The translations under genes were made by a program, and so were the position numbers. A stretch of DNA of 24,028 bases, from NCBI RefSeq assembly GCF_003334305.1, contig NZ_QOWS01000037.1; one strand, 5' to 3'. Positions within the stretch are counted from its first letter, which is position 1. Every line of letters begins with the position of its first letter. This DNA comes from Escherichia coli. Lineage in GTDB: Bacteria > Pseudomonadota > Gammaproteobacteria > Enterobacterales > Enterobacteriaceae. The notes beneath the pieces were generated by a model. That model was not told the DNA's origin, ran no database searches, and saw only the letters and a program-made list of their open reading frames with translations. Below, piece after piece: positions 15,148 through 15,247 of the stretch.

Positions 15148-15188
15148 GTAAGTTCCTTGATGGTTGTCTTTTCCAGGATTCTACCCTT

Positions 15189-15217
15189 TTGACAAGGGCG
15201 ACAGATATCGTTTTAAT
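15189..15217 (+). promoter_or_regulatory. Candidate sigma-70 promoter for yiiQ
   Basis: Perfect -35 TTGACA (15189-15194), 17-nt spacer, -10 TTTAAT (15212-15217), ~30 bp upstream of the yiiQ ATG; the -35 sits inside the inverted repeat CCCTT-TTGAC-AAGGG. Confidence 0.45.
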
Positions 15218-15247
15218 CGGAGCCAGTCATAACAAAAGGTACTGTCA

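Follow-up and report, generated by a model that had tools for sequence, protein, structure and literature searches.

A TTGACA/TTTAAT pair as the probable, conserved yiiQ promoter in the yiiR-yiiQ spacer of Escherichia coli, overlapped by an incidental dyad

The yiiR-yiiQ spacer and its promoter-like elements

The DNA analyzed is a stretch of 24,028 nucleotides (nt) from an Escherichia coli assembly (GCF_003334305.1), hereafter called the window. The subject is the spacer of 100 base pairs (bp) that separates two divergent genes of this window, yiiR, coding for a DUF805 membrane protein, and yiiQ, coding for a member of the DUF1454 family. The window is E. coli chromosomal DNA and matches strain W2-5 at 100% identity; the spacer has the same sequence in MG1655, where window position w becomes minus-strand position 4127462 - w. 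Facing yiiQ, the spacer carries the hexamers TTGACA and TTTAAT, 17 bp apart, the first of them set in the short palindrome CCCTT-TTGAC-AAGGG. An earlier note made from the sequence had reported the palindrome, both hexamers, their spacing and the coordinates, all of them correctly; it had read the hexamers as a yiiQ promoter, and the dyad either as an operator burying the -35 element or as a hairpin in the yiiR leader. The pair is very probably an ordinary sigma-70-type promoter of yiiQ, as that note had proposed, and the dyad in itself is without function.

When TTGACA-N17-TATAAT is searched for at 11 or more matching positions out of 12, the yiiQ pair is the single match found in the window, as against 0.08 expected from shuffled sequences. 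The -10 hexamer retains the final T at position 6, and lacks the A at position 2. The automated promoter scan skipped the pair, because TTTAAT has a T at position 2, where the scan demands an A. A different -10 register, TAATCG, separated from TTGACA by a 19-bp spacer, has this A and lacks the final T; it is less canonical and has no precedent, and was set aside. So was a second TTGACA, found on the minus strand at 15243-15248 and overlapping the yiiQ start codon, which lacks a usable -10 at a distance of 16-18 bp, is unconserved in other genera, and is probably there by chance. Few publications mention yiiQ or yiiR, and none was found that describes this promoter.

Conservation in Enterobacteriaceae

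The comparative set was made up of one genome per species, scanned by YiiQ alignment, and gave 52 loci from Escherichia, Citrobacter, Salmonella, Enterobacter, Kluyvera, Pluralibacter, Trabulsiella, Yokenella, Pseudocitrobacter and other genera. A YiiR relative resides upstream, on the opposite strand, at 52 of the 52 loci, the divergent start being resolved in 51, and the spacer is approximately 91-116 bp long, except for two loci carrying an insertion. One record labelled 'Chryseobacterium sp. 18061' (locus L047) features a typical Enterobacteriaceae yiiR-yiiQ locus, nearly identical to that of 'Citrobacter sp. 18056' (L029), which belongs to the same project; contamination or a wrong label is the probable reason.

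Aligned spacers show three conserved islands amid otherwise divergent sequence. Island 1 is AGTTTACCC, with GATTCTACCC as the Escherichia form. Island 2, which encompasses the -35 element, is TTTTGACAAG, and is invariant in all aligned loci. Island 3, CGTTTTAATC, encompasses the -10 element and is nearly invariant: the sole variable base (T, C or A) lies directly upstream of TTTAAT, and the G two bases upstream of the hexamer never varies. The -35 and -10 elements are 17 bp apart in most species and 18 bp apart in a few, a range which holds for all the 50 loci free of the repeat insertion described below. The exact arrangement TTTTGACAAG-N12-CGTTTTAATC occurs in MG1655 and in 40 of the 52 loci of the comparative set, and the other aligned loci deviate only by the 18-bp spacer or by one substitution just upstream of the -10. 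Conservation reaches further, to a metagenomic contig (L056) coding for a YiiQ protein 52% identical and carrying a divergent yiiR, in which TTGACA-17-TTTAAT is kept and TTTTGACAA is retained.

Constraint is visible also within the species. A region of 1151 bp spanning yiiR and yiiQ, spacer included, was found in all of 5426 complete E. coli genomes, of which only 2221 match it at 99% identity or more. In contrast, for the 141-bp region around the spacer (15130-15270), 5424 of the 5426 genomes reach this level. The lower variability of the spacer region indicates within-species constraint, and thus speaks for a promoter.

The two exceptional loci belong to Citrobacter gillenii and a related Citrobacter (L018 and L019), in which a repeat of approximately 125 bp (2333-2457 in L018) has entered precisely between the two hexamers of the yiiQ promoter. 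The right end of the repeat provides a TTGAAA hexamer exactly 17 bp upstream of the kept TTTAAT. A 131-bp query spanning the repeat gives a median of 7 matches per E. coli genome, and none of the matches listed falls under an annotated feature; the insert resembles the enterobacterial repetitive intergenic consensus (ERIC), and we take it to be ERIC-like. The insertion is consistent with selection keeping a working -35/-10 pair, the repeat having apparently rebuilt the promoter that it split.

Mapped yiiQ starts

Distances of transcription start sites from the start codon are available from supplementary file 6 of PMC10469882, in which sites mapped by Cappable-seq in E. coli O157:H7 EDL933 are compared to RegulonDB v10.5. 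The yiiQ row reports 98 for K-12 (RegulonDB v10.5), and 23 and 97 for EDL933 (PMC10469882). The O157:H7 spacer is identical to that of the window, and the annotated yiiQ start codon is the same. Subtracting 23 from 15248 gives A15225, 7 nt after the -10, hence a start located where the hexamers predict. The earlier note had staked its promoter on such agreement, and the proximal start provides it; the promoter reading is supported by this start, and by the deep conservation of both hexamers and of their spacing. Transcription from TTGACA and TTTAAT would thereby begin at A15225 and yield a 23-nt leader equipped with a Shine-Dalgarno sequence, the consensus -35 and the optimal spacing compensating for a -10 without A at the second position.

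The second, distal start arises at the 5' end of yiiR (Table 1). The TATGGT hexamer, its likely -10, is found in Escherichia, Citrobacter and Salmonella, and is replaced by TAnnnT variants elsewhere; this stretch is also under coding constraint. Transcripts initiated at the distal start would overlap the predicted 5' end of yiiR head-to-head by approximately 20 nt.

Neither yiiQ, yiiR nor the corresponding coordinates have a row in the supplementary tables of the K-12 Cappable-seq, ROSE in vitro transcription, Kim 2012, Romero 2014 and Salmonella ChIP-exo (chromatin immunoprecipitation with exonuclease digestion) studies; several of these tables are probably incomplete, and the absence says little.

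Table 1. Features of the yiiR-yiiQ region, in window coordinates
Feature	Position	Strand	Remarks
yiiR coding sequence	14707-15147	minus	DUF805 membrane protein, 146 aa; divergent from yiiQ
Distal yiiQ -35 candidate TTAAAT	15116-15121	plus	weak; from sequence
Likely distal yiiQ -10 TATGGT	15139-15144	plus	in the first yiiR codons; 6-7 nt from the mapped distal start
yiiR-yiiQ spacer	15148-15247		100 bp; yiiR ATG (minus) ends at 15147, yiiQ ATG starts at 15248
Distal yiiQ start	15150-15151	plus	97/98 nt upstream of the ATG; MG1655 equivalent approximately 4112312, minus; arises at the yiiR 5' end
Candidate yiiR -10 TAGAAT	15183-15178	minus	preceded by a near-invariant GGG; predicted start approximately 15171-15172
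Dyad CCCTT-TTGAC-AAGGG	15184-15198		CCCTT 15184-15188, loop TTGAC 15189-15193, AAGGG 15194-15198; judged incidental
yiiQ -35 TTGACA	15189-15194	plus	6/6 consensus; within the invariant block TTTTGACAAG (15187-15196)
yiiQ promoter spacer	15195-15211	plus	17 bp; sequence partly conserved
yiiQ -10 TTTAAT	15212-15217	plus	5/6 consensus, T for A at position 2; within the nearly invariant block CGTTTTAATC (15209-15218)
Proximal yiiQ start	A15225	plus	preceded by C; 23-nt leader; 7 nt past TTTAAT; MG1655 equivalent 4112237, minus
Shine-Dalgarno-like AAAGG	15235-15239	plus	8 nt before the yiiQ ATG; orthologues have GAAAGG or a GGAG-type purine run there
yiiQ coding sequence	15248-15847	plus	DUF1454 / YiiQ family, 199 aa; tpiA next

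The divergent yiiR promoter

Read on the minus strand, island 1 features the motif TAnnnT in 51 of the 51 scored loci, in the forms TAAACT (35 loci), TACACT (7), TAGAAT (5), TAAAAT (2), TAAGCT (1) and TAAATT (1). The motif is preceded by GGG in 49 of the 51, and is located 29-30 nt from the yiiR ATG in 50. T, A and T fixed around a variable interior are the usual signature of a -10 element, and the conserved TAnnnT is probably the -10 of yiiR. In E. coli this hexamer and the yiiQ -35 are only 5 bp apart, hence two polymerase footprints must overlap, the predicted starts being approximately 54 bp from each other. The promoter of yiiQ and the probable one of yiiR would thus stand back to back, and polymerases directed to the two may compete.

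The distance between the yiiR -10 block and TTGACA distinguishes two types of loci. The short form, of 5 bp, is found in Escherichia, Citrobacter, Salmonella and Intestinirhabdus, and also in the outgroup contig L056; the long form, of 18 bp, in which islands 1 and 2 lie 13 bp further apart, occurs in Kluyvera, Enterobacter, Pluralibacter, Trabulsiella and others (among L023-L049). In 26 long-spacer loci the sequence TTGTCA, reverse complement of the yiiQ -35 region, is found at a constant distance of 19 bp from the yiiR -10. No recognisable yiiR -35 was found in the short-spacer genera, E. coli included, and the start site comparison of PMC10469882 has no yiiR row.

Evidence weighing against an ordinary promoter

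Several observations weigh against the view that the pair is an ordinary yiiQ promoter. The -10 lacks the position-2 A that nearly all sigma-70 promoters have, and neither yiiQ nor yiiR is mentioned in the main-text SELEX (systematic evolution of ligands by exponential enrichment) tables of the RpoD holoenzyme (PMC3946193). The K-12 entry of RegulonDB v10.5, as quoted in the PMC10469882 table, has the distal start only, the proximal one being documented in O157:H7 only, and the meaning of the columns in that supplementary table was deduced from the Methods of the same paper. Lastly, all six positions of the yiiQ -10 and its flanks are invariant, a constraint exceeding that acting on the neighbouring yiiR -10, and the invariant blocks may have an extra function.

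This last point leads to an alternative in which the promoter is real, and its invariant 10-nt blocks are in addition used by a second reader, either a transcription factor or the divergent yiiR promoter, so that yiiQ and yiiR would be coupled or mutually exclusive. In the latter case, yiiR could use TTGTCA as its -35 in the long-spacer genera or, in the short-spacer ones, the A/T-rich -10 block could act like an UP element. The invariance of TTTAAT and its flanks, suboptimal T included, as opposed to a yiiR -10 of which only T, A and T are fixed, is in favour of such a dual role, as are the constant position of TTGTCA in 26 long-spacer loci and the predicted footprints of the two promoters, which overlap completely. 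Yet the PMC10469882 comparison lists no yiiR start, a 19-bp promoter spacer is suboptimal, and the spacing between the yiiR -10 block and the yiiQ -35 block differs by 13 bp between clades, a difference which indicates that these two are not one composite site. Moreover, an informal comparison by eye of the conserved blocks with CpxR, PurR, Cra, NarL, OmpR and TyrR consensus sequences gave no convincing match. We consider a second reader unlikely.

In the strongest form of this alternative, a conserved either/or switch, read by a factor or a condition, would be made up of the back-to-back promoters, which overlap completely, and of the invariant blocks, whose suboptimal -10 has stayed the same in over 50 species of enterobacteria. 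Such a switch would coordinate the DUF805 membrane protein YiiR with the periplasmic DUF1454 protein YiiQ, and would give tpiA a regulated input; we regard it as a speculative idea, with a low chance of being correct. The ordinary sigma-70-type promoter is the better explanation.

The CCCTT/AAGGG dyad

The dyad overlaps the -35 element, and operators so placed, at which a bound repressor occludes the promoter, are a common arrangement. A dimeric repressor binding the dyad would thus occlude the yiiQ -35, as the earlier note had suggested. The size of the dyad, however, is the one expected by chance: perfect inverted repeats with 5-bp arms and a loop of 3-8 nt average 0.83 per 100 bp in the window, and at least one is formed in 38% of dinucleotide-preserving shuffles of the spacer. 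A repeat search detected no inverted repeat of 8 bp or longer.

The pattern of conservation points in the same direction. Examined in the same 5+5+5 register at every locus, the perfect dyad is found in 3 of the 52 loci, all from Escherichia. In E. albertii the right arm is AAGGA; 18 loci of the Citrobacter/Salmonella type feature CCCTT/AAGCC, with 3 pairs left, and more distant genera have 1-3 pairs. Outside Escherichia the right arm reads AAGCC, AAGCG or AAGCT, and a compensating change in the left arm was never seen. Both arms are accounted for by other conserved elements. In the left arm, CCC is, on the other strand, the GGG upstream of the yiiR -10, and TT belongs to the invariant -35 block; in the right arm, the invariant AAG is followed by two G residues specific to Escherichia. 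The widespread pairs, CTT/AAG, coincide with the flanks of the -35 block. The dyad would have arisen by the extension of these three conserved pairs with the two G residues found in Escherichia.

Binding of a regulator to the spacer is not reported in the few publications mentioning yiiQ or yiiR. An RpoS-holoenzyme SELEX peak listed between yiiQ and yiiS (4110740, in older coordinates) maps to the 3' part of yiiR (approximately 14745 in the window), hence on the yiiS side, and was rejected as a candidate; a YdeO site is likewise located on that side, at the yiiS-proximal end of yiiR or upstream of yiiS, and outside of the yiiR-yiiQ spacer. An operator overlapping the yiiQ -35 is therefore very improbable, and a repressor acting at the dyad presumably absent.

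Even less probable is a dyad working as an RNA hairpin that affects stability or translation from within the leader of yiiR, as the earlier note had also envisaged, or from within the 97/98-nt leader of yiiQ: the distal start does place the dyad in a real 5' untranslated region of yiiQ, and the 27-nt hairpin stretch taken in isolation folds at -5.1 kcal/mol (z = -1.9), but the RNA of the whole spacer, minus strand, folds no better than shuffles (z = -0.49), nor does the 113-nt plus-strand RNA running from the distal start into yiiQ (z = +0.98), whose minimum-energy fold does not include the dyad hairpin, arms of which the right varies and the left is constant do not covary, and an Rfam search returned nothing relevant. 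As to the yiiR leader, the likely -10 of this gene lies between the dyad and yiiR, and this places the dyad upstream of the yiiR start and probably outside of its leader. Operator and hairpin are both unsupported, and the dyad is a chance by-product, restricted to Escherichia, of the sequences which surround the conserved -35.

Operon context and evolution

The gene next to yiiQ is tpiA, and an RNA-seq compendium calls tpiA-yiiQ one operon. A G+C-rich hairpin resides on the plus strand after the stop codon of yiiQ and before the start of tpiA (15899-15916); it is made up of 7 pairs, 6 of which are G-C, is followed by a weak T tail, and is terminator-like. Since the compendium calls one operon despite the hairpin, read-through into tpiA is probably partial. 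Transcripts initiated at yiiQ would probably continue into tpiA, and the yiiQ promoters may feed this gene too.

Distant DUF1454 homologues (approximately 45-52% identity; L054, L057, L058, L061 and L062) are the immediate downstream neighbours of fpr, in the same orientation and 3-107 bp away from it; in two lineages (L054; L057/L058) the DUF1454 gene is in turn followed by tpiA. The uspD-yiiS-yiiR block, located in E. coli between fpr and yiiQ, is absent from the fpr-adjacent loci. The presence of this block plausibly explains why lineages with a divergent yiiR have a dedicated, tightly conserved yiiQ promoter; divergent yiiR and dedicated promoter look like features of one enterobacterial sub-lineage.

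The value of these data is mainly one of annotation. Core promoter elements are assigned to a proximal yiiQ start which had been mapped but not described, a second, distal start is shown, and an operator hypothesis that was tempting but unsupported is removed. The analysis suggests that transcription from the yiiQ promoter may contribute to the expression of the glycolytic gene tpiA; it brings no new mechanism, and has no bearing on long-standing questions.

Comparison with known promoters

The likeness of the yiiQ dyad to operators overlapping a -35 element is confined to a short inverted repeat straddling the -35 in E. coli. Unlike such operators, the dyad has 5-bp arms, is at chance level, is unconserved beyond Escherichia and has no known cognate factor. 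The back-to-back arrangement of yiiR and yiiQ recalls the divergent pairs found in short enterobacterial intergenic regions, as the genes are 100 bp apart and their promoter elements interleaved. The yiiR promoter, however, is a putative one, drawn from the conserved TAnnnT motif, and the pair is not of the symmetric bidirectional 18-bp type.

Among single promoters, the yiiQ pair is akin to that of trp (TTGACA-17-TTAACT), representative of a class that combines a strong -35 with a weak -10. Promoters of the trp type and that of yiiQ share a consensus -35, a 17-bp spacer, a -10 without A at the second position, and a start 7-8 nt after the -10. The trp promoter, however, has an operator for TrpR, whereas no operator is demonstrable at yiiQ.

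The closest counterpart is the promoter of the tet(C) gene of pBR322, which has the same -35 (TTGACA), the same 17-bp spacing and the same -10 (TTTAAT). The tet promoter sequence, TTGACA-GCTTATCATCGATAAGC-TTTAAT, was confirmed at 100% identity upstream of tet(C). The two promoters have different spacer sequences, and drive a plasmid resistance gene in one case, a chromosomal gene for a periplasmic DUF1454 protein in the other; moreover, yiiQ, unlike tet, has a probable divergent promoter set back to back with its own, and a second, distal start in addition. In tet, TTTAAT is the weaker, wild-type -10, and the spacing is optimal (PMC2912393). Because the pBR322 promoter has the same pair of hexamers, a TTTAAT without A at position 2 can work when the -35 is consensus, as it is at yiiQ.
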